A DNA stretch of 64,000 nt from Patescibacteria group bacterium (lineage in GTDB: Bacteria; Patescibacteriota; WWE3; 2-01-FULL-39-13), in contig JASNYX010000002.1 of the NCBI GenBank assembly GCA_048499955.1, positions 68,513-132,512 on the forward strand. The letters run 5' to 3'. Positions 9,465-64,000 of this stretch are shown here, piece by piece (within the stretch, counting starts at the first letter, position 1; each line of letters starts with the position of its first letter). Both the position numbers and the translations under genes were made by a program. Under the pieces are notes generated by a model, which had not been told where the DNA came from, made no database searches, and was given only the letters and a program-made list of their open reading frames with translations.

Positions 9465-11078
9465 TTATTTTGTGGTCGGGATATTAGTTACGTAAAAAAT
9501 ATATATCGGAGGACCTAGTCTTCCTCGGTTATCAACCTCATATACTAATTCAGCATGTTTTAATATTGGGCTCGAGTTTCCCTCAATTAGGTCGGGATCT
9601 CGATCCCCACTTATAATTTCCTCACGTAGCACTCCTCTAGCACCAATAACTAAGTAAAAAGGCGCCTTTGAAACATCTACATGGTCAACATCAACTCTTT
9701 TTAGACGCTTAGATTTCTTTTCCTGAAATGGTACCATTTCCAGATCTTCCCCATATACGTATAGATAATCCACTTCCTCATAAACGTTATTTTTAATCCA
9801 ATCATACGCATAGTTTCTTGTATCCCTTACCGAGTAAAGGTAAGAAATTTTAGCTGACAAGTATAAAGTACTACCCATTACGAACAAAAGTGCAACATAC
9901 GTAATTACTTCCAAGCGACCTTTGAATACTCGGGAATTCAGAAAATCACGGATTTCAAGTATAAAATGTGCTATCGCAGGTATATAAAGCGGTATCAAAA
10001 ATATAAAATAGTGAGAAGGAGAGCGTTCAAAACTGCTTATGTATAGGCAGAAAATAAGAACTGGCAACAATGTCAACACATACGGCTTTGACCGCTTATT
10101 AAAAAAGATAAACAAGACCATTAACAGAGTAAAAATAAACCAAAGGGAAACACCTAAATCCTTTAAATACATTTTCCCGAACGTTTCATATAGAGCCAAA
10201 GGATAATCTACAACATCAATCCTGCCGACATTCTCAAATTGCCACATTGCACCTACTGCGTGCTCTTTAGACCAAAAATTATTCCAGTCTAGAAGGGCGA
10301 ATGGGGTTCCCAAATAAAAAAATAGTATGGAAATTAGTCCGGACAACAAAAAACTTACAAATATGCGGGTCCATTCTCGGAAATTTTTCCAGTCAGCCCA
10401 ATTGAACCTTAGTAGTACTGCGATCACCATAGGTAAAAAAACAAGGAATCCGTTGTATTTGATAGAAGTTGCGATACCAATTAATGCTCCGACAAACAGG
10501 AAAAACCTCCGCTCTCCAGTCTCGAAAATCCTAACGATATAGTAAATTGCCCAACTGATAAAAAAAGCCTGTGGAATATCCAGCTTGGCAAAGTGTGATT
10601 CATCAACGTGTACAGGTAATATCGCAAGTAACAATGCTGCTACTAATGCAGTCTTTCGGCTTTTGAATAAACTACGGGCAATAAGGTAAACAGGTACGAT
10701 CGTGGCAGTGGCAAAAAGGATATGCACAAACCTTGATACTACAAATAAGGCTGAAGTTGAATATAAACCTTCAAATTCTACAAAAACCGAAATAATAGCT
10801 CGAATAACTCCATATATTCCGAAAAATAAAGCGTTGATATAAAAATATAGATGAGGCCAATCAAAACGACCAGGGTGCAAACTGTCATTTAGGTTCGCAG
10901 TGGTACTTATAAGTGCAGGCTCATCAATGTTTATTTGTAGTGGCAATCCGTACCAAATACCCGCAAGTCGTATGAAAAAGCCTAATCCGATTATCGAGAT
11001 TAATACTCGATCCTTCTTCACAAATTTGATCAGCCGTATGAATTTTTGTTTAAAATTATGAATCATATTTACGAGCAT
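9465..11078 (-). CDS. GT-C fold membrane glycosyltransferase (PMT_2 / ArnT-like), paralog of 2023..3591
   Basis: 537 aa containing the IDEPA motif and the FDWPHLYFYINALFF block. Confidence 0.65.
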   Translation of the reverse strand: MLVNMIHNFKQKFIRLIKFVKKDRVLISIIGLGFFIRLAGIWYGLPLQINIDEPALISTTANLNDSLHPGRFDWPHLYFYINALFFGIYGVIRAIISVFVEFEGLYSTSALFVVSRFVHILFATATIVPVYLIARSLFKSRKTALVAALLLAILPVHVDESHFAKLDIPQAFFISWAIYYIVRIFETGERRFFLFVGALIGIATSIKYNGFLVFLPMVIAVLLRFNWADWKNFREWTRIFVSFLLSGLISILFFYLGTPFALLDWNNFWSKEHAVGAMWQFENVGRIDVVDYPLALYETFGKMYLKDLGVSLWFIFTLLMVLFIFFNKRSKPYVLTLLPVLIFCLYISSFERSPSHYFIFLIPLYIPAIAHFILEIRDFLNSRVFKGRLEVITYVALLFVMGSTLYLSAKISYLYSVRDTRNYAYDWIKNNVYEEVDYLYVYGEDLEMVPFQEKKSKRLKRVDVDHVDVSKAPFYLVIGARGVLREEIISGDRDPDLIEGNSSPILKHAELVYEVDNRGRLGPPIYIFYVTNIPTTK

Positions 11079-11124
11079 CTGCCCATTCTATGACAATAAA
11101 GTTGGGAAATATACCACCAACAAA

Positions 11125-12939
11125 CTATTGCAAAGTATTATCAGCCTCATCAGAACGTTCGGTCTCTTCACACAACATTCGCCCCTCCGGATAAAGGTTT
11201 TCATTTCCATATATAAAAGTCACAGGGTAATTCTCAGAATAAATAGTATGCAACAATTTATACCGTTCAGGAAGATCCTGTGCTTTGTAATATTGCCAAC
11301 TGTGGGGACCCTCTACAATAATCATATTATCAGCGTCTGTTTCGACTTCCCAACGATCAAGCTTTTTCTGATCAAATTGCAGGTAGAAATAAGTGATCGA
11401 GTTCTTTTCGTTCGAATTGAATGTTCCAACGAGACAACCTTTTTCGTATAAATTCGCGACCTGCTCCCAGCCTCGATAGTTGTTAAAACCAAAAACTCCT
11501 TCAATCTTTTCATGTCGAACTCGCTTAATCCGATAGATTTCATATCCCAAAAAATCTTTGTCCCACCAAGGATATTCAGGTGATCTGTCCGCAAATACAA
11601 CATAATTAACTCCTGAAACAAATACCAGAACAGATGTAAGTAAACCTAGTAAAGTCCATTTCAAATATTCATATTTAAATTTACTCAAAAGGAAAATAAC
11701 CCCTTGCCCGGCTAGTATGAATAAAGGCATCATCGAAACATACACATGTGTACGAGCATCCCTCATTATATAAAAGTAGAAGCAATACGCACCTAAAAAC
11801 CAGGCCACTAACGCAGCCTTATACCACGGCACGCGTTTATATATTGTTAAAATTCCTACAACAGCTAGAGAAGCAAACAGCACTAATAAGGAAGAGGCTC
11901 TCGGTTTGATGGGATACAAACTAAACCATGAAACAAATAAGATTCCTGCAATTAATGACAAATATAGCGTTCTAAAAATTTGTTTTCCCAACACAAAACG
12001 TTTGATCTTAAAAGTATCAAAGTATTCAACATACGAAGCGATCCCTATTAAACCTAATACAAAAAATAAATAAATGAAAAACTTAGGGATATACATGGTT
12101 AGAAGCTTTAATGATAATGCAGTGCCGGGCATGAATAGGTTCAATATGGAGTTAAATTCTCCTCCAAATAACCTTCCCTGCAAGTACCCGGAGGTTGTTT
12201 CATCAAAAGCCTGATTCGTATAGAACGGAACATAGTAAACCAAAGCCAATCCCATAGCTAGGGTAAAAAACAGAAGTGATCCCTTTGTAAATCTAATAAT
12301 TACCTCTTTAATAGGTTTCTCGTGAAGTTTGATTTCGCGGTGTGCGAAGGCTAAAAATCCAATAATAAAAAAGGGCATCACTGACATAGTGTCGTAGTGA
12401 ATAAGCAGACTTACTGCTGTCAGAACCCCTGAAAGTGTCAGATTACGGTAATTTATTCCTGAATCACTAAATGATTTTATGAAAACCCATACGGCAATAG
12501 GAACAAGAAAATACATTAAAGCCTGATACTGTGTAATTCTGGCAAAAGCAATGAATAATCCGTTAACTGACATTAGTAGCACAGCTATCAATGCAACATT
12601 TCGATCGAATATTTTTCGTGCCAAATTATAGGTAGTGAGAAGTGCCAGGACTCCGAAAATCATGTAAGGCAAACGGATAAAGACTTCCCCATGATATCCG
12701 AAGACCCAGGTATTAAAGATATTCAGCAAATACTGGACCGGACCTCGCTTTTGAGACATAAGGTAATTCCAGACACCGTCTTTCATCATATAAAGAAAAT
12801 CGATTGTATTGACCTCATCTCCCTGAAAATTTGAATATCCCAAACCTTGGAATCTTATGTAAACCGCAAAAATAATAAGTAGAAACGACACTACGGTAAA
12901 CCAAACCGGGAAGCTGTATTTTTTAATAAATTGGAGCAT
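11125..12939 (-). CDS. GT-C fold membrane glycosyltransferase (ArnT/PMT family)
   Basis: 604 aa. The FQGDEVNTIDF first-loop DE motif and the ...LARKIFDRNVALIAVLLMSVNGLFIAFARITQYQ block are typical of ArnT/PMT. The C-terminal region is soluble. Confidence 0.7.
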   Translation of the reverse strand: MLQFIKKYSFPVWFTVVSFLLIIFAVYIRFQGLGYSNFQGDEVNTIDFLYMMKDGVWNYLMSQKRGPVQYLLNIFNTWVFGYHGEVFIRLPYMIFGVLALLTTYNLARKIFDRNVALIAVLLMSVNGLFIAFARITQYQALMYFLVPIAVWVFIKSFSDSGINYRNLTLSGVLTAVSLLIHYDTMSVMPFFIIGFLAFAHREIKLHEKPIKEVIIRFTKGSLLFFTLAMGLALVYYVPFYTNQAFDETTSGYLQGRLFGGEFNSILNLFMPGTALSLKLLTMYIPKFFIYLFFVLGLIGIASYVEYFDTFKIKRFVLGKQIFRTLYLSLIAGILFVSWFSLYPIKPRASSLLVLFASLAVVGILTIYKRVPWYKAALVAWFLGAYCFYFYIMRDARTHVYVSMMPLFILAGQGVIFLLSKFKYEYLKWTLLGLLTSVLVFVSGVNYVVFADRSPEYPWWDKDFLGYEIYRIKRVRHEKIEGVFGFNNYRGWEQVANLYEKGCLVGTFNSNEKNSITYFYLQFDQKKLDRWEVETDADNMIIVEGPHSWQYYKAQDLPERYKLLHTIYSENYPVTFIYGNENLYPEGRMLCEETERSDEADNTLQ

Positions 12940-12942
12940 AGA

Positions 12943-14172
12943 TTATATCTGCAGAACTTCTATATACTTGGAAATCATAGCGTTTTTACTGAATTTTTTA
13001 AAGCCTTTCTCTGTTGCGTTTAAACTTAACTTAGCCAACATTTCCCGATCTACATATAATAGCTTTATCTTATCTGCCAAGTCTGAAGCCGAATACGAAA
13101 CAAATAGGCCGTTAATACCATCTTGAATTAGGTCTTTTAATCCGCCTTTTTCTGTGCAAACAACGGGTAACCCGGAACAAAAGGCTTCAGAAACGGTCAC
13201 AGGATGCCCTTCTTCCCGCCTTGTAGGTAAAACGAACACATGACAGTGTTGATAATATTCAGACAACTTGGAGTTTTCAACCCCGCCCAAAAACGCAACC
13301 TCATTATCCAGTAAACCGTATCGTTGGGCTTGAGGTTTAAACCTTTCAATATCGGAACCGGTTCCAATTAATTTTGCATATACCGGGATACCGCCATTCT
13401 TCAAAATAGAAATCGCATCTATTATCAGATCAATACCCTTCTCAACCTGCATTCTTCCTACATATAATATTGTAAAGAGTGGGTACTTTTCTTTTCCCGG
13501 TTTAAAAACCTCAGTGTCCACACCATTATTGATAACAGCAGTTTTACCAAACAAACTAGGATAGTCTCCTAAAAAACTGTTTTTTAAGTCATCACTAACA
13601 GAGATTATTCCCCTACACTTTTCAAAAAACTGCTTATTTTTGAATACTGATTCCCATTTCAGACGAGGAAAATCTAATAATAAAAACCGAGCGAGGCTTT
13701 TTATTCCGGTTGCGGAACGTAGACGGTTTTTAATTTCGGCATTAATAGTTCCATGAATTATTGAGTAAATGGGTATATCAACGCTCTGGTAAACACCATA
13801 TGCGGCGGTGCTCTGACTAATAATTAAATCCAACTTATCATTTGTATGCAGATCCTTGAGGTTCTTTAAACTTTCCTCAAAATAATTTTTTGATCCCAAC
13901 TTTTCGACTTTTAGCAATCCCAACTTATAAAATAGTTTTTCCCAAGTGTTTAAAGGATATTGACCCGGAGTTGTATTACCAATGAAATAGTACTTAACTC
14001 CGTTGATCAATTCCAAAATATTTTCGTTCTGATCTTGTGATTTAGCAGTAGTTATAACCGTAACGGAATGCCCGGCTTCCACCAAACCTTCGCATAAAGT
14101 TTTCAAATGAGTTTCCATTCCTCCTGAAATAAAATGGTGAGTGGTAGAGCGTGAGAAAACTACAATTTTCAT
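12943..14172 (-). CDS. GT4 (group 1) glycosyltransferase
   Basis: 409 aa with the C-terminal EX7E-type motif (REEGHPVTVSEAFCSGLPVVCTEKGG). Confidence 0.75.
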   Translation of the reverse strand: MKIVVFSRSTTHHFISGGMETHLKTLCEGLVEAGHSVTVITTAKSQDQNENILELINGVKYYFIGNTTPGQYPLNTWEKLFYKLGLLKVEKLGSKNYFEESLKNLKDLHTNDKLDLIISQSTAAYGVYQSVDIPIYSIIHGTINAEIKNRLRSATGIKSLARFLLLDFPRLKWESVFKNKQFFEKCRGIISVSDDLKNSFLGDYPSLFGKTAVINNGVDTEVFKPGKEKYPLFTILYVGRMQVEKGIDLIIDAISILKNGGIPVYAKLIGTGSDIERFKPQAQRYGLLDNEVAFLGGVENSKLSEYYQHCHVFVLPTRREEGHPVTVSEAFCSGLPVVCTEKGGLKDLIQDGINGLFVSYSASDLADKIKLLYVDREMLAKLSLNATEKGFKKFSKNAMISKYIEVLQI

Positions 14173-53280: not shown

Positions 53281-53760
53281 TCACCTGATTTCCAAAACAC
53301 GATACTCGGAAACGATAATAGGTGTTTTCACAATTACAATATCACCTTTCTTTGCTCCAATGAGAGCTTTACCAACCGGCGATTCATTCGAAATCAGTCG
53401 TTCCGACGGATTTGCTTCTGCACTACCAACAATCTTGAAAGTCTGTTCCTGTCCGTTTACTTTTAAAACCACAACTGAACCAAGCTCAACTGTGTAGTGC
53501 GTTTTAGCCTCTTCGACAACAACTGAGCTCGAAAGAATACTCTCAATCTCAGCAATTCTTCCTTCGATGTAACCTTGTTGTTCCAATGCAGCATCATAAA
53601 CAAGATTTTCCTCTATATTTCCCATGTCGCGGGCTTCCTTGATTTTAGTGGCAATCTCAGTACGCGCAACCTGGCGTAGGTGATCCAATTCCTCTTTAAG
53701 CTTTTTATAGCCTGTTTGAGTTAAATAATTTTGAGTTGTTGCCATTTTATTTAATATCAA
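53281..53760 (-). CDS. GreA-family transcript cleavage factor paralog with an altered acidic tip (GNIEEN)
   Basis: 159 aa with GreA N-terminal coiled-coil and C-terminal FKBP-like domains. The first catalytic acidic residue is replaced (D to N). Confidence 0.7.
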   Translation of the reverse strand: MILNKMATTQNYLTQTGYKKLKEELDHLRQVARTEIATKIKEARDMGNIEENLVYDAALEQQGYIEGRIAEIESILSSSVVVEEAKTHYTVELGSVVVLKVNGQEQTFKIVGSAEANPSERLISNESPVGKALIGAKKGDIVIVKTPIIVSEYRVLEIR

Positions 53761-54220
53761 TAATTTTATATTTTATTACTCCCATAGGAGCATTCACCTC
53801 AATGATTTCTCCTATTTCGCGTCCTAAAAGTGCTTGACCTAACGGAGACTCATGCGAAATTTTACCGGCAAGAGAATCTACCTCCTCGGTACCTACAACG
53901 GAATATTCCACTGTTTGCTTCTGGGACTCAAGTTTGACTTTTGATCCCAATGATACAGCTTTACTACCTCCATTATCAATAGGGGTTTCAGCAACCTGTG
54001 CATTTTTAATAATATCTTCAACTTCAAAAATACGGCCCTGAACCTGCCCCTGCTTTTCACGCATAGCAGTGTACATACCGTTTTCGCTTAAATCACCCAT
54101 AGATCTAGCCTCTTGTAGGTTTCTTAGCACCTCAGGCAATTGCACTGTCTGCAATTCATGGAGTTCTTTCTTTAATTCTTCGTACCCATCACGGGTAAGT
54201 AATATTTTTTGTCCTATCAT
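53747..54220 (-). CDS. greA: Transcription elongation factor GreA
   Basis: 157 aa with the MGDLSENGMY acidic tip motif. C-terminal domain conserved. Confidence 0.8.
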   Translation of the reverse strand: MIGQKILLTRDGYEELKKELHELQTVQLPEVLRNLQEARSMGDLSENGMYTAMREKQGQVQGRIFEVEDIIKNAQVAETPIDNGGSKAVSLGSKVKLESQKQTVEYSVVGTEEVDSLAGKISHESPLGQALLGREIGEIIEVNAPMGVIKYKIIDIK

Positions 54221-54655: not shown

Positions 54656-54730
54656 GGCCCCTTCGTCTATCGATTAGGACACCAGGTTCTCATCCTGGAA
54701 AGATGGGTTTGATTCCCATAGGGGTCACCA
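54656..54730 (+). tRNA. tRNA-Glu(CUC)-like gene, 75 nt, with non-canonical D- and T-loops, overlapping the 3' end of the recombinase gene; probable integration target/attL
   Basis: Hand-folded. Acceptor stem GGCCCCU/AGGGGUC, D-stem GUCU/GGAC, anticodon stem CCAGG/CCUGG with loop UUCUCAU (anticodon CUC), T-stem AUGGG/CCCAU, discriminator A, encoded CCA. The 5' half is near-identical to E. coli tRNA-Glu (GUCCCCUUCGUCUA...AGGACACC). G18G19 and C56 are absent. Confidence 0.5.
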
Positions 54731-56397
54731 TCAGGGACTAAGGCCGCAGCAAACTGCGGTTTTAGTCCTAAATATCGGACTAATTTTGGTGTTCCAGAAA
54801 GCAAATCTTGGTAGGTTGGCGTTTCTTCAAAAAGTAGGCTGAAATACTCTGCCTGCTTGAGTGGATTTTGCCCGTGTAGCAACAATTCTTCGAGGTGTTC
54901 CAGAAAATATCCTACGTTATCCATAACGACATCCATCCGAGTCTCCTTTCCTTGGTCTGACTTTTCTTGTTTGCTGTTTTCAAGTTGAGTGATTTCCTGC
55001 TCAACTTTGATCAAATCTTCCTCCATATATTTAATTGCCACTTCAGAAGACAGATAGCGGATTTTCTCGGCGATAGCTTTGGCGGTCATTCTTAGTTCAG
55101 AGATTTTGGTTTCTATAGTGGTAGTATCTTTTTCCTGCTCATCCTGGCGCTGATTCCACAACTCCATAACGTGCGCTTTGAGCTTCTCGACATATTCTGG
55201 TGTGATATCCAAGTTTTTCACAAAGTTTTCTATGGTCTGATTGAAGTCTTTGTTGGGTACTCGGAAATAGTGGCCACGTTTATTGCAATGGTATGCAGGA
55301 TAGTATTTGCCCAGCTTGCCTCTCGATGCACTGCCAAACAGTGGCTTGCGGCAGTGTGGACATAGAACATGACGTTTGTATGGAAAATCCGGATTTTTGA
55401 CCTGTTTGTTTAACAGCCAAGGTTTTGGCGTTTGTTTCCAAAACCGCACCTCTCCATTTTCTTCAACCAAAACTCTTTTGCCTTTATTTGCCTTGTTGTA
55501 CAACTCTATAGATACCAAGCCTTCAAATTTGCCCTTTACCGGTTGGCCTTCCGTCCATTTTTCGACATTAACACCAGCATAGATAGGATTTTGTATAAAT
55601 CTCCAGAATTGTTTTATTCTGAGTTTGTTGTTACCAATTTCACCGATCACTTTTGTTTTGTCTTTTGAGTCACGTTTGTACATCTTTCTGGTACGGAAAC
55701 CCAATGCATTTACTTCGTCAACGATCTGTTCATCGTTTAATGTCCCTCTAGCACGTAGCTCGAACATTTTGGCAATCCATTCTGATTCTTCTGGATGTGG
55801 CTTTAGGACCACACGTTTACCGTGAGAAGTCTCAATTTTCTCGTTCACATAGCCAAATGGCGGTTGTCTGACTCTAAATCCCAAGCGTACATAGCGGATT
55901 TCAGCACCGATCATGCGGGTCATGATGTCGCGCATCTCGTCTTTAGCCCGCTCAGCTTCGAGTATTTCAGCCTTTTTAGTTGGACTGTAAATGCTCCAGT
56001 CATATTGGATGTTTAGATGTTCTAATGTATTTACTTCTTGGCTGCCGATAATGCCATAGATATCAACCAGTCTGACTCCATATTTAGTAAGTTGCATTTT
56101 CAAATGGTCATACAAATATGATCCGCCGCGAGTAAACCGATCGATGGATTTGATTATGAAAAGCTGCACATCATTTTTAGGATCTTTGCAGTAATCTATG
56201 GCTTCCTGAACAGGTTGCTCTTCTTTGGAAGCTGACTCCATAAAGATAAAGAATTTCTTGATCTTGATGTTGTGTGCTTGGGCAAACCGCTCAATCTGTT
56301 CTTTCTGCGCTTCCGGTGAATCGCCCTGCAAACCCTGCTTTACTGATGAAATTCTGATGGCGGCGACGGCATTTTCCTGAGCAGTTTGGCTATTCAT
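54667..56397 (-). CDS. Large serine recombinase (resolvase-domain integrase)
   Basis: 576 aa. N-terminal resolvase catalytic domain (AVAAIRISSVKQ... with Ser nucleophile context, DRFTRG), recombinase domain, a zinc-ribbon-like Cys pattern (CPHCRK...C) and a C-terminal coiled-coil. Confidence 0.85.
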   Translation of the reverse strand: MNSQTAQENAVAAIRISSVKQGLQGDSPEAQKEQIERFAQAHNIKIKKFFIFMESASKEEQPVQEAIDYCKDPKNDVQLFIIKSIDRFTRGGSYLYDHLKMQLTKYGVRLVDIYGIIGSQEVNTLEHLNIQYDWSIYSPTKKAEILEAERAKDEMRDIMTRMIGAEIRYVRLGFRVRQPPFGYVNEKIETSHGKRVVLKPHPEESEWIAKMFELRARGTLNDEQIVDEVNALGFRTRKMYKRDSKDKTKVIGEIGNNKLRIKQFWRFIQNPIYAGVNVEKWTEGQPVKGKFEGLVSIELYNKANKGKRVLVEENGEVRFWKQTPKPWLLNKQVKNPDFPYKRHVLCPHCRKPLFGSASRGKLGKYYPAYHCNKRGHYFRVPNKDFNQTIENFVKNLDITPEYVEKLKAHVMELWNQRQDEQEKDTTTIETKISELRMTAKAIAEKIRYLSSEVAIKYMEEDLIKVEQEITQLENSKQEKSDQGKETRMDVVMDNVGYFLEHLEELLLHGQNPLKQAEYFSLLFEETPTYQDLLSGTPKLVRYLGLKPQFAAALVPDGDPYGNQTHLSRMRTWCPNR

Positions 56398-56576
56398 ACG
56401 TTTACCTGATGTTTATTGGTAGTTACCCGTACTATTCCGCTTTTCTTGTCTTCTATGATCCGGTCTACTATCAGATGGGCCAGCGTTTTTAGCCATTCTT
56501 CGTTGTGATCAGCACTCGAAGTTTTTGAGGTTTCAGAGGTTGTTGTAATTTGTTTTACCCGATTGTCTTGTCTCAT
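56394..56576 (-). CDS. Small hypothetical protein overlap-coupled upstream of the recombinase (possible directionality factor)
   Basis: About 60 aa. The track ORF starts at a TTG, and the ATG at 56576 is the more likely start. Its stop overlaps the recombinase start (ATGA). Confidence 0.25.
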   Translation of the reverse strand: MRQDNRVKQITTTSETSKTSSADHNEEWLKTLAHLIVDRIIEDKKSGIVRVTTNKHQVNV

Positions 56577-56736
56577 ACCTGCTCTATACAACTATCCATT
56601 ATACGGATAGTATAGACACTTTCAAGCAGAGTGTCAAGGCAAAATATTAACCAATTTGGACTGTTATTTCTTTACTCTTGATGTGTTTTGATATAGACTG
56701 CTTGCTAATCTGCCTCTAGTAAAAAACTAAGGCAAA

Positions 56737-59385
56737 ATGGACGCTCTAAACACTAACCCACTGCTTCAATATCTTAACCCCAGCTTTGATAATTTGTCCT
56801 CTAGATTCCAACTGATTTTGTCGATTTTTCCTTTCAGTGAGATTGTATTCTGGCTAGGTATATTTTTACTCGCGATAGTAGTTTTTAGCGGAGTGCTTTA
56901 TCTCGTCCACAAGTTTGTGCTCGTATATCTCCAGCTAAAGGAAACGTATACATTTCTAGAAGTCACTCCACCCAAAGAAACACTCAAAAGCTCATATACC
57001 ACCCAACAGCTGTTTAATCTATTGCACGGATTGGCTAGACAACGCTCCTGGTGGCAAAGGTTTATTGGAAGTCAAAAAAACTATGCCTTTGAAATAGTAT
57101 CGACCAAGGACGATGGGATCAGGTACTTGCTTCGGGTCAACGAAGAAGATGCGGATCTGATTAAGAAGAGCTTGCTGTCTTATCTCCCAGGTTTAAGCGT
57201 CACTGTTGCTAAGGATTATATGACTGAAAGTTTTGATACTCACAAAAGAGTTATTGCCCAATTTGGACTGGCAAATCACTTTGCATTTCCTCTCAAAAAA
57301 CAGGATGAGTTGGGAGAACACGATCCGATTGCATATATTACCGGCAACATGACCAAGCTTTCAAAGGATGAGCTGGTAGTTTTCCAACTGGTTGCTTCAC
57401 CGGTCAACAAAAGTGCTATTTCTGATATCAGGCGTATCTCTCATCTGATTTATGCTAATAAAGATTTAATTTCCGGTTTAAAGGCAATTAGAGCAGCCGG
57501 TTTATTTGTTGGTATCTTTAAGGGAGTTATTTTTCTTGGCTTTTATGTACTGACTTTGCCGATAGGCATTGTAGTATTTCTGGCTTCTAATGGGCGTGAA
57601 GGTCCGTTATTGCCATTGCCTTTTGGAAATGAACCGGCCAAAACAGCTAATCCGTACCAAGAGGAATTGGAGATTTCAATCAAAGCCAAGCTCGATCAGC
57701 AGCTTTTTGCCACCAGCATCAGGCTATTAGTAGTCGGCAACAACAGGACTGATAACTACAAAAGAGTCCGGGGTTTTGTTTCCTCACTGGCTTCTTTTAG
57801 CAATTCGGCCTATCAGTTCATCAAAAGAGCAAGAGAACTAAAGGTTAATTACTATGAAAGATATAAACAGTTCTGTTTCAGACAACGCCTTCCTGCATTT
57901 TTCACTTCTATCCTGTCCGTTTCAGAAGTGGCTGACCTCTATCATTTTCCTTTCACCAAAACCACTAGAACTGAGGATATTCAAAAAATTCACAGTAAAG
58001 AATTGCCAGCTCCAGTTTCATTAAAAAAAGCTAACGACTTGGATGTAGTCTTTGCCAAAAACACGTATGGCGGCAACACTACTATGATTGGGCTTAACCA
58101 GGAAGAGCGCCGTCGACACATGTATATTCTTGGTGCAACCGGTACGGGTAAGTCCACCATGCTTTTATCCATGATTAACCAGGATTTGCAGAACGGGAAA
58201 GGCCTCTGCGTCATTGATCCGCATGGTGAGCTGATTGATAGCATCTTGCCGCTTATCCCTGAAAACAGAATCAAAGATGTTGTGTATTTCAACCCTGATG
58301 ATATTAGTTATCCCGTTGGATTGAATCTGCTGGAACTGCCAACCGATATCACCGGCGATCCGTTGCTGCGGGAAAAAGAGCTCATTACTGAAAGCATTAT
58401 TTCGCTTTTTCATAAAATCTATGATGATAAGTACTCCGGCCCTAGAATGGAATATATTCTGCGGAACACTATCCATACGGCATTTACTACCGAAAATCCG
58501 ACCTTATTTACGATCTATAAGTTGCTGATAAATGAAGACTTCCGAAAGAAAGTAACAAGCAAGCTGGAAGAAGAAAACCTACATGATTTTTGGAAATATG
58601 AATTTTCCAAAGCCGGTGACTACCAGAAAGTGAAAATGATTTCCCCGATTACTAACAAAATAGGTCGGTTTTTATTCTCGCCAACTGCCAAACGCATCCT
58701 GGAACAGGAAAAATCCACTATTAACTTTGATGACATTATGGATTCCGGCAAAATCCTTCTTTGTAATGTCTCCAAGGGTAAGATCGGGGAAGACAACTCG
58801 CAGGTATTCGGAACATTGGTAATGACCAAGATTCAACTGGCAGCACTCAAACGGGCAAGACAAAAGAGCGATACTAGACGGGACTTTTATCTCTATGTGG
58901 ATGAATTCCAAAACTTTGCCACACCATCATTCGCCCAAATACTCTCTGAAGCCAGAAAGTACCGCCTGAATGCAATCCTGGCTCACCAAACAACTTCTCA
59001 GCTGGAAGACAAGTCACTAGTGCATGTCACACTTGCCAATACTGGTACCGTCATTTGTTTTAGGACTGCCAATCCCGAAGATGAACGGTTGATCCTGCCG
59101 CAATTCATTCCCTATGTCCAGCCGGGTGAAATTGATAATCTGCCCTCATTCCACTTCTATATCAAGATTGCCGCCCTCCGGCCGGAAGAACCATTTTCCG
59201 GGGAAACCATGCCAGTCAAGGTGCCAGACATTCCGGCAATGGTACAACAAATTATTGAGGCTTCGAGAGTTCATTTTGCCAAGGAGTTTGTGGCAACGGC
59301 TTCGACGTTTAAGCCGAAAGCTATTCCCAATAAGCGTGCGTTTAAGACAAAGACGAATAAGAAAAGCGATGTTTTTCCTGACTGA
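56737..59385 (+). CDS. TraD/TraG/VirD4-family type IV coupling protein-like ATPase with a long N-terminal membrane/unknown domain
   Basis: N-terminal TM helices. Walker A ILGATGTGKST, Walker B YLYVDEFQNF, and the conserved ARKYRLNAILAHQTTSQL block characteristic of TraG/TraD/HerA-FtsK-like DNA translocases. Confidence 0.6.
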   Translation: MDALNTNPLLQYLNPSFDNLSSRFQLILSIFPFSEIVFWLGIFLLAIVVFSGVLYLVHKFVLVYLQLKETYTFLEVTPPKETLKSSYTTQQLFNLLHGLARQRSWWQRFIGSQKNYAFEIVSTKDDGIRYLLRVNEEDADLIKKSLLSYLPGLSVTVAKDYMTESFDTHKRVIAQFGLANHFAFPLKKQDELGEHDPIAYITGNMTKLSKDELVVFQLVASPVNKSAISDIRRISHLIYANKDLISGLKAIRAAGLFVGIFKGVIFLGFYVLTLPIGIVVFLASNGREGPLLPLPFGNEPAKTANPYQEELEISIKAKLDQQLFATSIRLLVVGNNRTDNYKRVRGFVSSLASFSNSAYQFIKRARELKVNYYERYKQFCFRQRLPAFFTSILSVSEVADLYHFPFTKTTRTEDIQKIHSKELPAPVSLKKANDLDVVFAKNTYGGNTTMIGLNQEERRRHMYILGATGTGKSTMLLSMINQDLQNGKGLCVIDPHGELIDSILPLIPENRIKDVVYFNPDDISYPVGLNLLELPTDITGDPLLREKELITESIISLFHKIYDDKYSGPRMEYILRNTIHTAFTTENPTLFTIYKLLINEDFRKKVTSKLEEENLHDFWKYEFSKAGDYQKVKMISPITNKIGRFLFSPTAKRILEQEKSTINFDDIMDSGKILLCNVSKGKIGEDNSQVFGTLVMTKIQLAALKRARQKSDTRRDFYLYVDEFQNFATPSFAQILSEARKYRLNAILAHQTTSQLEDKSLVHVTLANTGTVICFRTANPEDERLILPQFIPYVQPGEIDNLPSFHFYIKIAALRPEEPFSGETMPVKVPDIPAMVQQIIEASRVHFAKEFVATASTFKPKAIPNKRAFKTKTNKKSDVFPD

Positions 59386-59487
59386 AAATGTAACAGCCGG
59401 TTGTTACAAAAAATCAATCAATTTTCAGGCTAAGGGAATACCTTTTCTTTACCTCTTTTCCTTTCTTAGAAAGGGAGGAATGAATAT

Positions 59488-60258
59488 ATGACTATATACG
59501 ATCTAACCGACAAACAACTTGAAATACTTCTGCTTATCTATCGGTTCCGTTTCCTTAATAGAAACCATATTCAACAATTCCTCAATCATAAAAATCATAG
59601 TCTTATCATCCGCTACCTAAATCAACTATCAGACTACCAACTCATCAACAAAATCCACTCCACCAAAAGAACAGACATCAACTCACCATCAGTCTATTAT
59701 CTGGCCACCAAAGCCAAGTCACTGCTTAAAGACTATGACAAATGTAACCCTGACCTCCTGGGGAGAGTCTATCGGGAAAAATACCGCTCCGAATCCTTTA
59801 GAAACCATTGTTTACTACTCGCTGACCTCTACTTCCTATTCCAAAAAGCAGCTGAAGAACAAAAAGCCATCTGTCACTTTTACACCGCAACCGATATTTC
59901 CACTGTTGCCTACGCACCACTACCACTGCCGGATGCTTATGTCACAATTAAAGAAAAGAATAAGCACATCAAGCGTTATTTTCTGGATATTTTTAATGAC
60001 GGTATGCCCATGTTTGCCGTGAGGAGGAGAATCAACCAGTACTGCCGCTACTATGCCGGCAATTTCTGGCAGGATCACAATAAAGATCCGTTTCCAAAAG
60101 TTTTTCTAATTTGCCCCACGGTCCGGGTCCAGAAATCACTCCTAAAATTTATCCCGCAAACATTGACGGTCGAAGGCGCCGATATTTCTTTCTTTCTTGG
60201 GTTAAAAGAAGACCTTGTAAAACGGGGAATCCGGCCGGATTCTTGGGAAGCAACCTAA
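59488..60258 (+). CDS. Replication-relaxation family protein
   Basis: N-terminal winged-helix-like LTDKQLEILLLIYRFRFLNRNHIQQFL pattern typical of the Replic_Relax family, found next to coupling proteins on Gram-positive ICEs/plasmids. Strong RBS AGGGAGGAATG. Confidence 0.5.
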   Translation: MTIYDLTDKQLEILLLIYRFRFLNRNHIQQFLNHKNHSLIIRYLNQLSDYQLINKIHSTKRTDINSPSVYYLATKAKSLLKDYDKCNPDLLGRVYREKYRSESFRNHCLLLADLYFLFQKAAEEQKAICHFYTATDISTVAYAPLPLPDAYVTIKEKNKHIKRYFLDIFNDGMPMFAVRRRINQYCRYYAGNFWQDHNKDPFPKVFLICPTVRVQKSLLKFIPQTLTVEGADISFFLGLKEDLVKRGIRPDSWEAT

Positions 60259-60259
60259 A

Positions 60260-60427
60260 CTACTTCCTCTTTTCTTCTTCTGATAGTATCTCGTGCCCAG
60301 CTCGCATAATTTTCTGCACCAGTACCGTTACAACCCCTTGCAAGTCGCTTCGGGTGAACTCGTTCTGGTTGTCGATGAGTTCCATGATTTCATCCTCATA
60401 CTGACTTGTTAGTCTTGGATCAATCAT
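60260..60427 (-). CDS. Unlisted 55-aa ORF (MIDPRLTSQYEDEIMELIDNQNEFTRSDLQGVVTVLVQKIMRAGHEILSEEEKRK) with a near-perfect Shine-Dalgarno sequence
   Basis: Manual translation. AAAGGAGGTGAATAAAT precedes the ATG. It lies downstream of the DUF2958 gene on the same strand. Confidence 0.3.
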   Translation of the reverse strand: MIDPRLTSQYEDEIMELIDNQNEFTRSDLQGVVTVLVQKIMRAGHEILSEEEKRK

Positions 60428-60467
60428 ATTTATTCACCTCCTTTATATTTTACTAAACTCACACTAC

Positions 60468-60488
60468 CGGCCGCGGGGTTATTCCCCG
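60468..60488. terminator. GC-rich hairpin CCGCGGGG-uuauu-CCCCGCGG between convergent/co-directional element genes
   Basis: Perfect 8-bp stem read from the sequence. It overlaps the DUF2958 stop codon region and is followed by UUUAU on the + strand. Possible bidirectional terminator or intercistronic structure. Confidence 0.35.
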
Positions 60489-60802
60489 CGGTTTATCGGT
60501 ATCTCTTGAATATCTTTGAACCTGGTTGGCTTAAAGTGCAGATCTCTTTCTATTCCCAGGCCAAATTTGCCTTTGTAACTTTCCAGCTCCAAAAGTGAAA
60601 AGTAGCCCCATTCATCGTTCCAGTCCCCAAAGATTGAAACGTATCCATAGAATGTTTGATCTTCCGGGTAATACTCGGTGGCATACCAAGTACCCGCACC
60701 GGTAGGATTAAAAAATCTAGCAATGACTAGCGGATCACTGCTTGCTTCTTGCCTTCCGGCTTTCTCAAACTCTTCCAGTAGTTCCTTAGTTAATAGTTTC
60801 AT
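60479..60802 (-). CDS. DUF2958-family protein (common on plasmids/ICEs)
   Basis: 107 aa with the ...FFNPTGAGTWYATEY...YGYVSIFGD...EWGYFSLLELE...GLGIERDLHFKP pattern of DUF2958. Strong RBS AAAGGAGGTGA. Confidence 0.5.
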   Translation of the reverse strand: MKLLTKELLEEFEKAGRQEASSDPLVIARFFNPTGAGTWYATEYYPEDQTFYGYVSIFGDWNDEWGYFSLLELESYKGKFGLGIERDLHFKPTRFKDIQEIPINRGE

Positions 60803-61022
60803 ATAGCTTCACCTCCTTTTTGCATCTTCCTGATAATTTTTGTTTGGGAAGCATGCCCATGCTTCCCATACTTGGAGATTTTTAAGCGGGGTGAAGTTTG
60901 CAAGGGTCACGACCAACGGGAGTGACTTGCGCAGCCCTTGCAAAATGAGGGGCAAGGCCCCTTAATAAAGAAGCTTATTCTGGTCAACTATCGTTTTTGC
61001 GGGTATACTTTATTGGTATCTA
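60803..61022. promoter_or_regulatory. Highly structured intergenic region with nested inverted repeats; candidate oriT / operator region of the element
   Basis: The inverted repeats are GGGAAGCATGcc/CATGCTTCCC (10-bp arms, 60864-60885), TTGCAAGGG...CCCTTGCAA (9-bp arms enclosing GTCAC...GTGAC) and GGGGCaagGCCCC. It lies between the DUF2958 and Xis genes, next to the coupling protein and replication-relaxation genes. Confidence 0.3.
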
Positions 61023-61211
61023 TTGGTAAGTAAACATATGGAAGAACTGCTAACATTAAGTGAGGCAGCCAAAATACTAAAAGTCCATCCTAATACTCTT
61101 AGGTTGTGGGATAAAAGCGGCGTACTTAAAGCCGTTAGAATTGGCGTTAAAAAAGTAAGAAGATACCGAAAACAAGATATTGAAGCATTTATAGACAAGA
61201 AGAATAAATAA
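61023..61211 (+). CDS. xis: Excisionase-family (MerR-like) HTH DNA-binding protein
   Basis: 62 aa. LLTLSEAAKILKVHPNTLRLWDKSGVLKAVRIG...RRYRKQDIEAFI is the canonical excisionase/MerR HTH signature. Confidence 0.6.
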   Translation: MVSKHMEELLTLSEAAKILKVHPNTLRLWDKSGVLKAVRIGVKKVRRYRKQDIEAFIDKKNK

Positions 61212-61214
61212 TTT

Positions 61215-64000
61215 ATGTCTCTTATTGACAATCAAAACCAAACAATGCACCAAGCGCTTATTAACGCGCTTTCAACTGCTGGCAGGATCGACATTCAGGT
61301 TGGGTACTTTTATTTTTCCGGCTTCGAACTTCTCGCAAAACACTTAAAAGACAAACAAGTAAGAATCCTCGTTGGTAAACAAATTGACCCAAATGCCGTT
61401 CCCAATATTATTTCTATGCAGCAGAAAACTGGTAAGCCAGTGGATTTAGAGCGTTTCCAGTCATGGGATACCTTTGTTTCCAGAACAGAACAAAAATCTA
61501 AATACTTCGAAGGATTCTCCAAGCTCTTTAATGAATCTCAAGTATTTGACAGTCCAGAGTCACAAGAGGCATATAAGATTTTTGAAGAAAAAATCATAGA
61601 CGGCTCGTTACAAATTAAACTCACCAACAATGATGAGCACGGAAAAATGTATCTGGTGTACAACAAGCCAGAAATGAATCAAGGTGGTGATTTTCCAGGT
61701 ACGATGTTTTTGGGCTCAAGCAACTTTACATACAACGGACTGATTGACCAAGGAGAGCTCAATAAAACTGATAGAGATAAGGCCAGTTTTGAAGAAGCCA
61801 CAAGTAAATTCGAAGCGATGTGGTCAGAAAGCCAAAACATAGATATTGCCACCCCTGATAATAACCAAGAATTCAAAGAGGTAGTTAAAAAACTTTGGAT
61901 TAACACTGTAGTGAAGCCTTATCTCATGTACATTAGGGTACTACACGAACTCTTTGGTAAAGATCGAAATACGGATATCGAATCTCCAGGCAAAATTACC
62001 GACGACTCATTTATCGACCTCGAATATCAGCTTGATGCTATTCGGATGGGAATTGATCGTATCAATCAATATGGCGGTGTGATTGTTGCTGATGTCGTAG
62101 GGTTAGGTAAAAGTATTATTGCTTCCGCGATTGCCTACAACATCGCTCAAAAAGATCGCATTAACGTGGTAATTATTTGTCCACCCCATCTTATAACCCA
62201 ATGGGAAGAATATCAGGCTCACTTTAGGCTACCTGGAACTAAAATATTCAGCTCAGGAAAAATAGAAGATGCCTACCGTTGGTGTACTGATCAAGTTACC
62301 GGTCCAGTACTGTTGGTGCTGGATGAAGCCCATCGATACCGCAATGAATTGACAGATGACTACACACTCCTCCATTCACTTTCCAGAAGCAATCCAAATA
62401 ACAAAGTTGTCGTTTTAACCGCAACACCTTTTAACAATGACCCAAAAGATGTGTTCGCGTTAGTTAAGCTATTCCAAACCCCCGGACAATCAACAATTCG
62501 ATCAGTGGATAACCTCTCTCTTAGATTTAGGGAGCTTATAGATAGATACAAAAAGCTTCGATCAAGCATGAGGAGAAACAATCTAACTACTGATGAGATA
62601 AATGACGAAGCAAAAGAAATCGCTTTGGAATTGCGACGACTTATTGAGCCCGTCATTGTCCGCAGATCTCGTCTTGATCTGCAAACTATTTCGCGTTATC
62701 GCAATAACCTCATTAAGCAAGGGATCGCGTTTGCAGCAGTTGAGGGGCCAGAACTGCTCGAATACGAGTTGGGTGATTTATTTGACTTATATCTCAACAC
62801 ACTTGAAACTCTTACCAACGAAGATCATGGCTTCATCGGCGCTCGATATAAACCTGTTACCTATATTGCTGATGAAAAACGCGATGAGTTTAAAGAAAAG
62901 TACGGCGCATATTTAGATGATGTAGACCTGCAAACCGCACAAAGCAACTTGGCGTCATTCATGAAGCGTTTACTCGTTATGCGTTTTGAGAGTTCTAAAG
63001 AAGCATTCCGGATCACACTCCAAAATATGATTGACTCCAATCAAATGATCGCTCGTTGGTATCGCGATCAAGGTAGAGTGCCAATTTTGAAAAAAGGCAG
63101 AATTCCAGATCCTGATACATTTATGACTGACGCAGGAGATGATATTACCTCAGAATTGGACGAACAATTTAATGAAGAAAGTGACTCCAAATACAAACTC
63201 CTCTTTGTAGAAAAAGAGTGGCTGAAACCCGAATTTATTAAAGAAGTTGAGTCAGATACACAACTTCTTCTTTCCATCAGGGACCAATGGTTTAACAATA
63301 ACAAAGCGATCATCGATTTGGATCCCAAGCTGGATTCTCTCGTTGAAAATATCAAACGCCTTCTTAGTGAAAACCCCGACAGAAAGATTGTTATTTTTTC
63401 AGCATATGCGGACACGGTTGATTACTTGGGAGATGCGATCAAAAAAGCAGGATTTTCAAGAGTCTATAAATATACTGCTAAAGATGCATCAAAAGCAAAT
63501 CGTGAATTACTTCGCTCCAACTTCGATGCTGGAATAAAGCCTGAATTACAAGCCAACGACTACGATGTGCTTGTTGCCACCGATGCACTTTCGGAAGGGT
63601 ATAACCTCCACCGCGCCGGAGTTATCTTCAATTACGACATACCATTTAACCCGACCCGTGTTATTCAGAGAATTGGTCGTATCAATCGCATTAACAAAAA
63701 AGTTTTTGATAGCATCTTTGTTTACAACTTCTTCCCAACGACGATTGGTGAAGCTGAAACTAGAATTCAACAAATCAGCACTCTGAAAATGACCCTTATC
63801 AATGCAGTAGTTGGTAGTGATACCAAAACGCTTACTAGCGATGAAGAGCTAAAGAGCTTCTTCAAGGACGAGTATGTCAAGGCAAATAAAGAGGTTGAGT
63901 TTGAATCATGGGATGCAAAGCATCGTGAAGCATATGATCAAACTCCTGATGAAGTGATAGATGAGGCTATGAATATTCGTCCAAGAAGCCGTGTTATGCG
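61215..64000 (+). CDS. Large PLD-family (HKD) nuclease + SNF2/Swi2 helicase fusion protein, truncated at the window end; candidate element-borne defence or anti-defence gene
   Basis: Manual translation. No stop codon from the ATG at 61215 to 64000, which is why it is absent from the ORF track. The N-terminal PLD HxK motif is EHGKMYLVYN...GSSNFT. The SNF2 ATPase has motif I VVGLGKSIIA, motif II LVLDEAHRYRN (DEAH), motif III LTATPFNN, and helicase-C motif VI QRIGRINR. Confidence 0.8.
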   Translation, partial: MSLIDNQNQTMHQALINALSTAGRIDIQVGYFYFSGFELLAKHLKDKQVRILVGKQIDPNAVPNIISMQQKTGKPVDLERFQSWDTFVSRTEQKSKYFEGFSKLFNESQVFDSPESQEAYKIFEEKIIDGSLQIKLTNNDEHGKMYLVYNKPEMNQGGDFPGTMFLGSSNFTYNGLIDQGELNKTDRDKASFEEATSKFEAMWSESQNIDIATPDNNQEFKEVVKKLWINTVVKPYLMYIRVLHELFGKDRNTDIESPGKITDDSFIDLEYQLDAIRMGIDRINQYGGVIVADVVGLGKSIIASAIAYNIAQKDRINVVIICPPHLITQWEEYQAHFRLPGTKIFSSGKIEDAYRWCTDQVTGPVLLVLDEAHRYRNELTDDYTLLHSLSRSNPNNKVVVLTATPFNNDPKDVFALVKLFQTPGQSTIRSVDNLSLRFRELIDRYKKLRSSMRRNNLTTDEINDEAKEIALELRRLIEPVIVRRSRLDLQTISRYRNNLIKQGIAFAAVEGPELLEYELGDLFDLYLNTLETLTNEDHGFIGARYKPVTYIADEKRDEFKEKYGAYLDDVDLQTAQSNLASFMKRLLVMRFESSKEAFRITLQNMIDSNQMIARWYRDQGRVPILKKGRIPDPDTFMTDAGDDITSELDEQFNEESDSKYKLLFVEKEWLKPEFIKEVESDTQLLLSIRDQWFNNNKAIIDLDPKLDSLVENIKRLLSENPDRKIVIFSAYADTVDYLGDAIKKAGFSRVYKYTAKDASKANRELLRSNFDAGIKPELQANDYDVLVATDALSEGYNLHRAGVIFNYDIPFNPTRVIQRIGRINRINKKVFDSIFVYNFFPTTIGEAETRIQQISTLKMTLINAVVGSDTKTLTSDEELKSFFKDEYVKANKEVEFESWDAKHREAYDQTPDEVIDEAMNIRPRSRVM

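Follow-up and report, generated by a model that had tools for sequence, protein, structure and literature searches.

Type ISP enzymes (LlaGI, LlaBIII) combine four activities in a single polypeptide: an Mrr/PD-(D/E)xK nuclease; a superfamily 2 (SF2) motor; a methyltransferase; and a recognition domain. Class 1 DISARM distributes its functions across DrmA, DrmB, DrmC, DrmD and DrmMI. A fusion of an HKD (phospholipase D, PLD) domain with a Swi2/Snf2 ATPase is the defining effector of Type-2 BREX-related (BR type 2) systems (PMC12839542). These systems, also termed Gao_RL or Gao_29, correspond to MANTIS, which comprises: MtsA, a DUF499 AAA+ protein; MtsB; MtsC, a methyltransferase; and MtsD, a dimeric PLD-SF2 effector (bioRxiv 10.64898/2026.09.23.753747). 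MANTIS hemimethylates asymmetric 6-bp sites, and its restriction prefers inverted sites (bioRxiv 10.64898/2026.09.23.753747). SauUSI, a Type IV ATP-dependent restriction enzyme, dimerizes via its PLD domains (PMC7913695). Here, a PLD-SNF2 fusion gene is analyzed at positions 61215..64000 of the forward strand in a 64,000-nucleotide stretch of DNA (the window) from a Patescibacteria group bacterium of the WWE3 lineage (assembly GCA_048499955.1, contig JASNYX010000002.1, positions 68,513 to 132,512). The analysis suggests, with a probability of about 0.72, that PLD-SNF2 is the R-like subunit of a self-contained, two-gene, ATP-dependent module resembling restriction-modification (R-M), carried as cargo of a conjugative element at tRNA-Glu in Patescibacteria (candidate phyla radiation, CPR).

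Translation of 61215-64000 (+) gives 928 sense codons and zero stops; the chance of such a stop-free run, computed from the local base composition, is ~1.5e-27. The reading frame opens at an ATG at 61215, 3 nt past the stop of an upstream 57-residue helix-turn-helix (HTH) gene. Pfam identifies a single PLD/HKD nuclease domain (PLDc_2, 41.5 bits against a cutoff of 27) at residues 20-203 (61272..61823, +). This is followed by a first SNF2 ATPase lobe at residues ~267-490 (62013..62684, +), covered by SNF2-rel_dom (50.4 bits against a cutoff of 24.9), ResIII and DEAD, and by a second lobe at residues 710-827 (63342..63695, +), matched by Helicase_C (62.8 bits against a cutoff of 23.5, 4.3e-17). 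Each signature motif occurs only once in the 928 codons. The nuclease domain contains HGKMYLV (residues 142-148) and GSSNF (167-171), with H142-x-K144 at 61638-61646 and GSSN at 61713-61724. The first ATPase lobe contains the Walker A sequence GLGKS (296-300; 62100-62114), DEAH (370-373; 62322-62333) and TATP (402-405; 62418-62429), and motif VI of the second lobe reads QRIGRINR (818-825; 63666-63689). With every domain above its Pfam gathering threshold and every quoted motif present, the proposal of a first-pass annotation of this DNA, that an N-terminal PLD nuclease and a complete SNF2 ATPase share one polypeptide, is borne out. Across PLD-SNF2 alignments spanning 43-99% identity, the invariant positions are H142, K144, G167-S-S-N170, E181, GLGKS, DEAH, TATP and QRxGRxNR. 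The chain holds one HKD half-site only.

The gene continues past the end of the window, as that annotation had stated. Nearly all of the best 120 PLD-SNF2 matches are 1100-1108 residues long; most belong to Patescibacteria/CPR (Nomurabacteria, WWE3, Daviesbacteria and Microgenomates among them). This tight length distribution places ~173 codons beyond the edge, so that the window contains the first 928 of ~1101 codons. One full-length homologue, P0001, has 1101 residues and is 99% identical to the window protein across the shared 928. In this homologue, Pfam detected no SRA or other reader domain, and a sequence search against the PDB returned generic SF2/SNF2 matches and nothing more specific.

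Related copies of the surrounding element provide a test of integrity. Window positions 54722-64000 are 95.3% identical in nucleotide sequence to loci L102 and L106, and positions 54705-64000 are 93.4% identical to locus L001. In element copies at 92.7-95.3% nucleotide identity, the PLD-SNF2 reading frame is intact at 1101 residues. The window and L001 differ synonymously at 166 codons of the gene and non-synonymously at 10, a pattern that points to strong purifying selection. A decayed pseudogene, with a stop or frameshift just past the window, had been raised as a possibility; given intact relatives and a non-synonymous rate far below the synonymous rate, this is rejected for the family and, in the window copy, for the first 928 codons.

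The gene downstream of PLD-SNF2 was evaluated in 80 loci from one-genome-per-species contigs. These share 38-85% identity with the query and derive from Patescibacteria, Elusimicrobia, Bacillota, Bacteroidota, Planctomycetota, Spirochaetota, Cloacimonadota, Caldisericia, Thermotogota, Chloroflexota and proteobacterial metagenome-assembled genomes. In every informative locus (78/78, with a sufficiently long contig; >10 phyla), a methyltransferase (MTase) homologue follows on the same strand. In 30 loci, more than for any other spacing, the two genes overlap by 4 nt; most other loci fall within ~15 nt, and ~10 loci, mostly Bacteroidota, contain an extra insert of 0.3-2 kb. In near-identical copies of the element found in the window, the MTase has 1055-1084 residues and its start overlaps the PLD-SNF2 stop by 4 nt. 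The MTase is therefore an obligate neighbor of PLD-SNF2. By the same arrangement, the partner of the window gene would start just beyond the window edge. A check for an adjacent methyltransferase or DUF1998 partner had been proposed by the first-pass annotation, and it proved decisive: the former is present, as an Eco57I/MmeI-type enzyme, and no DUF1998 protein was found in the annotated neighborhoods.

The domains, motifs and structure model of the MTase partner derive from these related copies and not from the window. Pfam matches are Eco57I (1.6e-27), N6_Mtase, TaqI_C (1.5e-18) and MmeI_Mtase, and the S-adenosylmethionine-binding motif DPACGSGAF and the NPPY motif are conserved. The sequence points to an N6-adenine MTase of the gamma class, ~1050 residues in length, with a layout like that of Type IIG/IIL enzymes, in which a nuclease-like N-terminus is followed by a helical spacer, then by the MTase core and last by a TaqI_C recognition domain. 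Profile matches in the PDB were CamA, BseCI, BrxX/PglX, TaqI, BpuSI and MmeI. The MmeI match aligns positions 152-296 of the MTase with MmeI 120-263, a stretch that we take to be the helical spacer of MmeI.

This layout raises the question of whether the MTase is a complete, self-sufficient Type IIG/IIL enzyme with an active N-terminal PD-(D/E)xK nuclease, to which PLD-SNF2 would be an accessory effector such as a processive shredder. The best PADLOC matches to the MTase are indeed REase_MTase_IIG profiles (5.7e-70), with PglX (1e-19) and DrmMI weak, and the domain order is that of MmeI, DrdV and BpuSI. In the structure model, the N-terminus adopts a nuclease-like fold with restriction endonuclease-like topology, and semi-conserved acidic residues, D22 and E56, are found in 18/24 and 20/24 homologues. 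However, the clade of this element has N and I in their place, the N-terminus conserves no D...(D/E)xK triad, and there is no conserved Lys two residues past E56. Pfam detected neither MmeI_N nor any other nuclease family in this region, and a profile of the N-terminal 200 residues matched nothing in the PDB even at E = 10. The 78/78 linkage with overlapping stop and start codons also makes an optional accessory role for PLD-SNF2 hard to explain. A self-sufficient Type IIG enzyme is accordingly judged unlikely. Sequence conservation suggests instead that the MTase N-terminus may be a decayed nuclease domain reused as a scaffold.

The recognition domain shows a signature of R-M. The MTase was compared across 61 complete loci in four regions (residues 1-200, 200-430, 430-790 and 790-end). 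The regions before the recognition domain gain identity as PLD-SNF2 identity grows: among pairs with PLD-SNF2 80-100% identical, mean MTase identity is 80% for residues 1-200, 80% for 200-430 and 59% for 430-790. The recognition domain (790-end) remains at 21-26% identity regardless of relatedness. The pattern is clearest on a single backbone of the element, represented by L101, L102/L106, L103 (MTase gene at 9829-13008) and L104. On this backbone, identity is 98-100% for PLD-SNF2, 93-100% for MTase residues 1-430 and a mosaic 65-96% for the MTase core, but only 29-41% for the recognition domains (791-end) compared among the four groups; L102 and L106 are the same throughout. The recognition domains of L104 and L096 are 69% identical, though the PLD-SNF2 of L096 is only 88% identical, which indicates that lineages exchange these domains by recombination. 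Together, these comparisons indicate at least four specificities in one element family, acquired by recombination. Such variation would be predicted for the specificity module of an R-M system, not for a housekeeping or conjugation factor. Swapping of recognition domains is typical of Type IIG/IIL and PglX/BrxX enzymes.

Milman et al. (PMC9881135) described programmed inversions in Cj0031-like Type IIG genes next to which lies a coding sequence with PLD (cd09178) and SNF (cd18793) domains. At several loci of the present set, mostly from Bacteroidales, an ORF of ~330-650 residues lies between PLD-SNF2 and the MTase: L049 (13280-14350), L052/L053 (13224-14243), L061 (4955-5944), L062 (3300-4304) and L069 (13189-15135). 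The L049 ORF has no Pfam match. In the pooled set of inserted and downstream ORFs (80 loci, alignment A5), three match RhuM, two match TaqI_C and one matches Eco57I. By analogy with the Cj0031-like inversions (PMC9881135), the TaqI_C and Eco57I ORFs may be spare recognition-domain cassettes.

The two-gene family is widespread. At least 3,750 matches at E <= 1e-10 were obtained among the candidates scored in a search of 5.8 billion proteins, corresponding to >3,700 protein clusters when distant relatives are included. A survey of one-genome-per-species contigs gave at least 600 matching stretches, of which at least 588 were confirmed in species-representative genomes. CPR bacteria and gut Bacteroidales and Clostridia stand out as frequent carriers of the family, whose distribution is patchy, following mobile elements and defense islands. 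Close phage relatives are nearly absent from the phage collection searched (10 records, all <60% identity), which indicates that PLD-SNF2 is not a phage gene family. On a Parabacteroides plasmid, the pair (41% identity) has TIR and AAA genes as neighbors. Plasmids of Thermus, Allomeiothermus, Rhodococcus, Thermococcus and Lactococcus encode more distant PLD-helicases (24-33% identity), in every case adjacent to a DNA methyltransferase of another kind.

Genes near the pair include many with roles in defense: Gabija, ZorD, Type I restriction endonuclease, Dpd, RhuM, an OLD-like ATPase-TOPRIM protein, ApeA, GmrSD, YhcG, Schlafen/HEPN and SIR2-HerA. None of these constitutes a third partner. Among 55 flanking ORFs of at least 650 residues in the 80 loci, each PADLOC family is limited to three loci at most, and DrmA, DrmB, BrxC, PglZ and DUF499-type proteins do not recur. 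DUF499, DUF3780, DUF1998, PglZ and BrxC are absent from the Pfam-annotated neighbors of 16 related loci, and DUF3780 is absent from 40 inserted and downstream ORFs scanned. The pair is thus a self-contained module residing in defense islands. The proposal that PLD-SNF2 is defense or restriction cargo is strengthened by this context, together with the obligate MTase and its swapped recognition domains.

Some neighbors are restricted to one clade. PDDEXK_1 and HTH_17 genes are limited to close CPR relatives within the 80-locus set. In the CPR clade, the distance from the MTase to the downstream Cas4-like PDDEXK_1 gene, or a longer DUF2779 form, is 0-4.5 kb, also away from the conjugative element (for example L001 13051-13818, L005 17783-19297 and L096 20025-21578). 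Its product could be a clade-specific third module component, or separate cargo.

Profile scores place PLD-SNF2 near several known families. NCBIfam NF042964 (PLD anti-phage) scores 158 bits against a cutoff of 1100 (2.4e-46), and PADLOC PLD_Helicase gives 2.6e-24. From their names we assume that both represent the Gao_RL effector, and only on this assumption is sequence homology to MtsD detectable. Alongside NF042964, the best NCBIfam match is to DrmD, at 144 bits for NF038317 (cutoff 610) and 93 bits for NF038318 (cutoff 950); the RapA model NF003426 scores 50 against 576. As these values are far below the equivalog cutoffs, PLD-SNF2 is related to these families and a member of none. The best PADLOC profile is 'C3a139 HKD+Snf2', which indicates that the fusion is already catalogued; further matches are to DrmD, BrxHI/II, DpdE, HmaA and PLD_Helicase. 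A DrmA profile also matches PLD-SNF2 itself, through the shared helicase core only. The first-pass annotation could not assign the arrangement to a named system; the same architecture is nonetheless present in SauUSI and MtsD, is represented by the PADLOC 'HKD+Snf2' and 'PLD_Helicase' profiles, and is recorded as a PLD+SNF coding sequence in PMC9881135.

One reading of these matches, and of the HKD-Swi2/Snf2 fusion that defines the BR type 2 effector (PMC12839542), is that the pair is a degenerate or partial member of MANTIS/BR type 2, class 1 DISARM or BREX, with its other parts located elsewhere or missed. The low scores, the lack of any recurrent core protein among the neighbors described above, and an MTase of Eco57I/TaqI_C type instead of BrxXI-like type make this highly improbable. 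Membership in MANTIS, DISARM or BREX is rejected, as their core partners are absent from the scanned loci.

The AlphaFold 2 model of PLD-SNF2 (pLDDT 74.5, pTM 0.62) most resembles SNF2-family double-stranded DNA (dsDNA) translocases. Foldseek ranks RapA first (2.8e-12), followed by SRCAP, Chd1, INO80 and ZorD. The rank of RapA could be taken to favor a non-defense SNF2 protein, either an RNA polymerase recycling factor or a repair translocase, that merely lies beside an MTase gene. RapA itself has N-terminal Tudor domains and no nuclease, in contrast to the conserved PLD nuclease at this N-terminus. RapA identity, which the first-pass annotation had named as a case that would refute its proposal, is rejected because of this domain and the score far under the cutoff. 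The patchy distribution across mobile elements and defense islands, and the obligate link to an MTase with swapping recognition domains, render a non-defense function of any kind barely credible.

The element that carries the pair is integrated at a tRNA gene. GC content climbs from 0.37 to 0.41 at ~54 kb of the window, where tRNA-Glu(CUC) sits (54656..54730, +), and homology to other element copies begins at 54705-54722, within the tRNA 3' end. A large serine recombinase of 576 residues, the element integrase, is encoded at 54667..56397 (-; Pfam Resolvase); its relative in L106 also matches Pfam Recombinase, weakly. The recombinase ORF ends at 54667, placing its last ~21 codons antisense to the tRNA-Glu gene. 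Based on this overlap and on the start of homology inside the tRNA, a single stretch of element DNA seems to provide both the 3' terminus of the tRNA and the C-terminus of the recombinase. Directly left of the integration site are two tandem, slightly overlapping, full-length genes of the GreA/GreB family (53281-53760 and 53747-54220, both -; 159 and 157 residues).

Rightward of the recombinase, the window contains: a type IV coupling protein (T4CP)-like ATPase of 882 residues (56737..59385, +; Pfam TrwB_AAD_bind, DUF87, TraG-D_C and T4SS-DNA_transf); a Replic_Relax protein of 256 residues (59488..60258, +; PF13814, 8.9e-12), a putative relaxase or replication-relaxation factor; and a DUF2958 protein of 107 residues (60479..60802, -; PF11171, 1.1e-19), part of the element backbone and divergent from the HTH/PLD-SNF2 operon. 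Cluster members of the 882-residue protein (P0246, P0247) are labeled 'tetrahydromethanopterin S-methyltransferase subunit F' by JGI; this looks mis-annotated because Pfam shows TrwB_AAD_bind, DUF87, TraG-D_C and DUF8128. In near-identical copies, the genes downstream of PLD-SNF2 encode the MTase, the Cas4-like PDDEXK_1 protein, two small ORFs and TrbC/type IV secretion system (T4SS) pilins; TraC-like and VirB4-like ATPases and an M23 peptidase were found in L001 only (the 93% copy).

The recombinase at tRNA-Glu, the T4CP-like ATPase and Replic_Relax protein, and the T4SS genes of the copies together identify an integrative conjugative element (ICE), in a call based on DNA from tRNA-Glu through the T4SS genes. 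PLD-SNF2 occupies a cargo slot between the DNA-processing and mating-pair modules. The claim that PLD-SNF2 is cargo of an integrative element is thus well founded, both in the window and in the 93-95% identical copies.

Position within an ICE, between the relaxase/T4CP and T4SS modules, is an argument for a role in conjugation. The pair could be an establishment or anti-restriction device that methylates or remodels incoming element DNA, letting it evade restriction by the recipient instead of attacking foreign DNA, comparable to P1 DarB and plasmid MTase-helicases, and mobile elements often carry MTases that protect them on entry. However, the pair is also found at chromosomal sites with no detectable conjugation genes, beside other defense genes, in many phyla. 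The HKD residues are invariant, which an anti-restriction MTase-helicase would not need, and hypervariable recognition domains on one backbone fit a diversifying defense specificity. In addition, two remnants of the element keep the module after losing the recombinase and T4CP. The first-pass annotation had left immunity and anti-restriction side by side; the former is favored, and the latter appears very unlikely.

The two remnants are L101 8043-18617 (GCA_002069875.1, Microgenomates ADurb.Bin238) and L105 8449-14010, both decayed copies of the same element. The recombinase is absent from each, and the T4CP is reduced to a 98-residue fragment in L101 and missing from L105. Replic_Relax, DUF2958, HTH_17 and PLD-SNF2 are intact in both. 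The MTase and PDDEXK_1 genes are also intact in L101, and the L105 contig stops within the MTase gene. The L101 island is flanked by host genes, with GatCAB, DnaE and L19 on one side and a cupin and a hydrolase on the other. Survival of the R-M module after the conjugation genes fits selection for, or addiction to, the module.

The 57-residue HTH gene upstream of PLD-SNF2 (61038..61211, +; Pfam HTH_17 5.7e-13, MerR-type) was described by the first-pass annotation as an excisionase. Its product is the same in the window and in L001 (100% identity); 9 differences in the gene are synonymous and 0 are non-synonymous. HTH_17 lies directly upstream of PLD-SNF2 in differing contexts (L002, L011, L016, L094 and L096), and the three genes HTH_17, PLD-SNF2 and MTase are found together, at 86-92% identity, in other surroundings. 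The trio lies next to a C5-MTase and a portal-like gene in L002, has an OLD-like gene inserted in L094, and adjoins SIR2-HerA in L096. L094 also contains a second HTH_17 gene of 58 residues, which heads an operon (4460-6200, -) with a 188-residue ORF, a SIR2_2 protein and a 960-residue protein. As HTH_17 moves with the R-M operon outside ICE contexts, at a 3-nt spacing, it is probably not an excisionase, and that role for the ICE is rejected. Its sequence context favors a regulator of the operon itself, similar to the controller proteins of R-M systems, over a recombination directionality factor. Given its presence at the SIR2 operon as well, this small HTH type may serve repeatedly to regulate defense cassettes in CPR mobile elements. 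In other phyla, an Xre-type small HTH is sometimes found at the same position.

By position, a better candidate directionality factor is a conserved ORF of 60-65 residues with no Pfam match (56394-56591, -; L001 1697-1879), which extends into the beginning of the serine recombinase gene.

DUF2958 and the HTH operon are divergently oriented, and the intergenic region that separates them (60803-61037) contains two inverted repeats: a near-perfect 14-nt repeat (60842-60855/60858-60871); and a perfect 10-nt repeat with a 28-nt spacer (60897-60906/60935-60944). These repeats, within 60842-60944, may be operators of the HTH protein. A promoter-like site, TGGTCA-17-TATACT (60981..61009, +), lies upstream of the HTH gene and is a consensus match only. 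Promoter and terminator sites in the intergenic region are no more numerous than in shuffled sequence, and the scan is therefore given no weight.

If the pair operates as an R-M system, the proposed sequence of events is as follows. The MTase would read a short DNA sequence and methylate it, thereby marking self DNA. The nuclease-like N-terminal domain of the MTase, with no conserved triad, may provide a docking surface for PLD-SNF2. An unmethylated site would then switch on the SNF2 motor, which would translocate along dsDNA. In Nuc and BfiI, two PLD domains pair into one active site. With one HKD half-site per chain, two PLD domains of PLD-SNF2 would likewise have to pair, as in Nuc, BfiI, SauUSI and MtsD. 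The resulting dimer could be constitutive, as in SauUSI and MtsD, or could form on collision of translocating complexes, as in Type ISP and Type III enzymes, and the strands would be cut sequentially. Expression of the operon may be controlled by the HTH_17 gene directly upstream. Carried on the element, the module would protect host and element from phage and rival mobile DNA, and would probably also stabilize the element by post-segregational killing.

Several points weigh against this interpretation. The canonical Asp of HxK(x)4D is replaced by Y or H in PLD-SNF2, a loss that may be tolerated here as in some PLD nucleases. The nuclease activity of MtsD, the best-studied relative, has not been reconstituted in vitro (bioRxiv 10.64898/2026.09.23.753747). 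Co-variation of the MTase N-terminus with PLD-SNF2 could reflect shared descent of adjacent DNA and not physical contact. The last 173 codons and the partner gene were seen solely in element copies at 93-95% identity, not on the window's own contig. Finally, the activity of the pair (methylation, ATPase, translocation, cleavage, and restriction of phages or plasmids) is wholly inferred from sequence.

If the proposed mechanism is correct, this would be the simplest known coupling of an HKD-SNF2 motor-nuclease to methylation-based discrimination of self and non-self, requiring two genes as compared to four in MANTIS and at least five in DISARM and BREX. It would also provide a tractable system for questions posed by MANTIS: how an MTase recruits and licenses a PLD-helicase; whether the dimer is constitutive or forms by collision; and what ATP hydrolysis contributes. 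Judging by the PADLOC matches, defense-finder catalogues probably type these loci as Type IIG R-M from the MTase gene, leaving the likely true nuclease called only a 'helicase-related protein'. The locus documents defense cargo with fast specificity turnover on conjugative elements of CPR/Patescibacteria, where mobile elements and immunity are poorly known. It is one of few described defense cargoes on such elements, and is not surprising in principle. A targeted literature search returned nothing specific on CPR conjugative elements carrying R-M, and a further search found no paper naming or testing this two-gene system, with only PMC9881135 noting a PLD+SNF coding sequence beside Type IIG genes.

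Comparison with described systems places the pair among several relatives. Class 1 DISARM likewise has, in DrmD, DrmC and DrmMI, an SNF2 helicase, a PLD nuclease and an N6-adenine MTase, respectively. It differs in that PLD and SNF2 are separate proteins there and fused here, and its DrmA/DrmB (DUF1998) core is absent from the annotated neighborhoods. With this composition and the sub-cutoff DrmD score, the suggestion of a DISARM- or Mokosh-like module is not upheld. In contrast to BREX, there is no PglZ, BrxC or BrxL alongside the MTase. CglI and NgoAVII share the use of a PLD nuclease plus a helicase-like SF2 motor for ATP-dependent cleavage, along with a cognate MTase.

On the MTase side, Type IIG/IIL enzymes (MmeI, Eco57I, BpuSI, DrdV, Cj0031) and PglX/BrxX share the helical spacer, the gamma-class MTase core and a recognition domain of TaqI_C/MmeI type. 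Unlike the Type IIG/IIL enzymes, the MTase described here does not conserve the catalytic triad at its N-terminus and is always paired with a PLD-SNF2 gene.

On the effector side, SauUSI likewise fuses an N-terminal PLD domain to an SF2/SNF2 motor. SauUSI has its own SRA-type domain, targets methylated cytosine and lacks an MTase partner, whereas PLD-SNF2 has no reader domain and is accompanied by the MTase in all informative loci. Like PLD-SNF2, MtsD has a single HKD/PLD nuclease at its N-terminus, which is joined to an SF2 ATPase of the Swi2/Snf2 type. MtsD is dimeric with one composite PLD site, acts on unmethylated DNA and takes its specificity from a separate N6-adenine MTase, features that are proposed for PLD-SNF2. 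MANTIS uses four proteins, in which MtsB is a small DUF3780-type protein, whereas two conserved genes are present here and neither DUF499 nor DUF3780 was found in the scanned loci. The partner also differs, being a Type IIG-like MTase of ~1050 residues with its own TaqI_C domain and nuclease-like N-terminus. In BR type 2, the MTase is BrxXI-like (PMC12839542), while homology assigns this one to the Eco57I/TaqI_C type.

Type ISP enzymes have the same list of parts: nuclease, dsDNA motor, gamma-class MTase and recognition domain. Here, these parts are split across two overlapping genes, the nuclease is of the PLD/HKD type, and the motor is nearer to bona fide SNF2. Cleavage by translocation and collision, as in Type ISP, would be compatible with the pair by its parts list only.

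The PLD-SNF2 fusion architecture is already known; what is new is a minimal two-gene relative of MANTIS and Type ISP, uncharacterized as far as the literature search showed. The chances are about even that the pair represents an unnamed class of minimal two-component ATP-dependent R-M, in which an MTase with a decayed nuclease recruits a dimeric HKD-SNF2 protein. The closest effector architectures are those of MtsD and SauUSI. By analogy, the system would work most like a split Type ISP enzyme, or like a minimal MANTIS that dispenses with the AAA+ loader.

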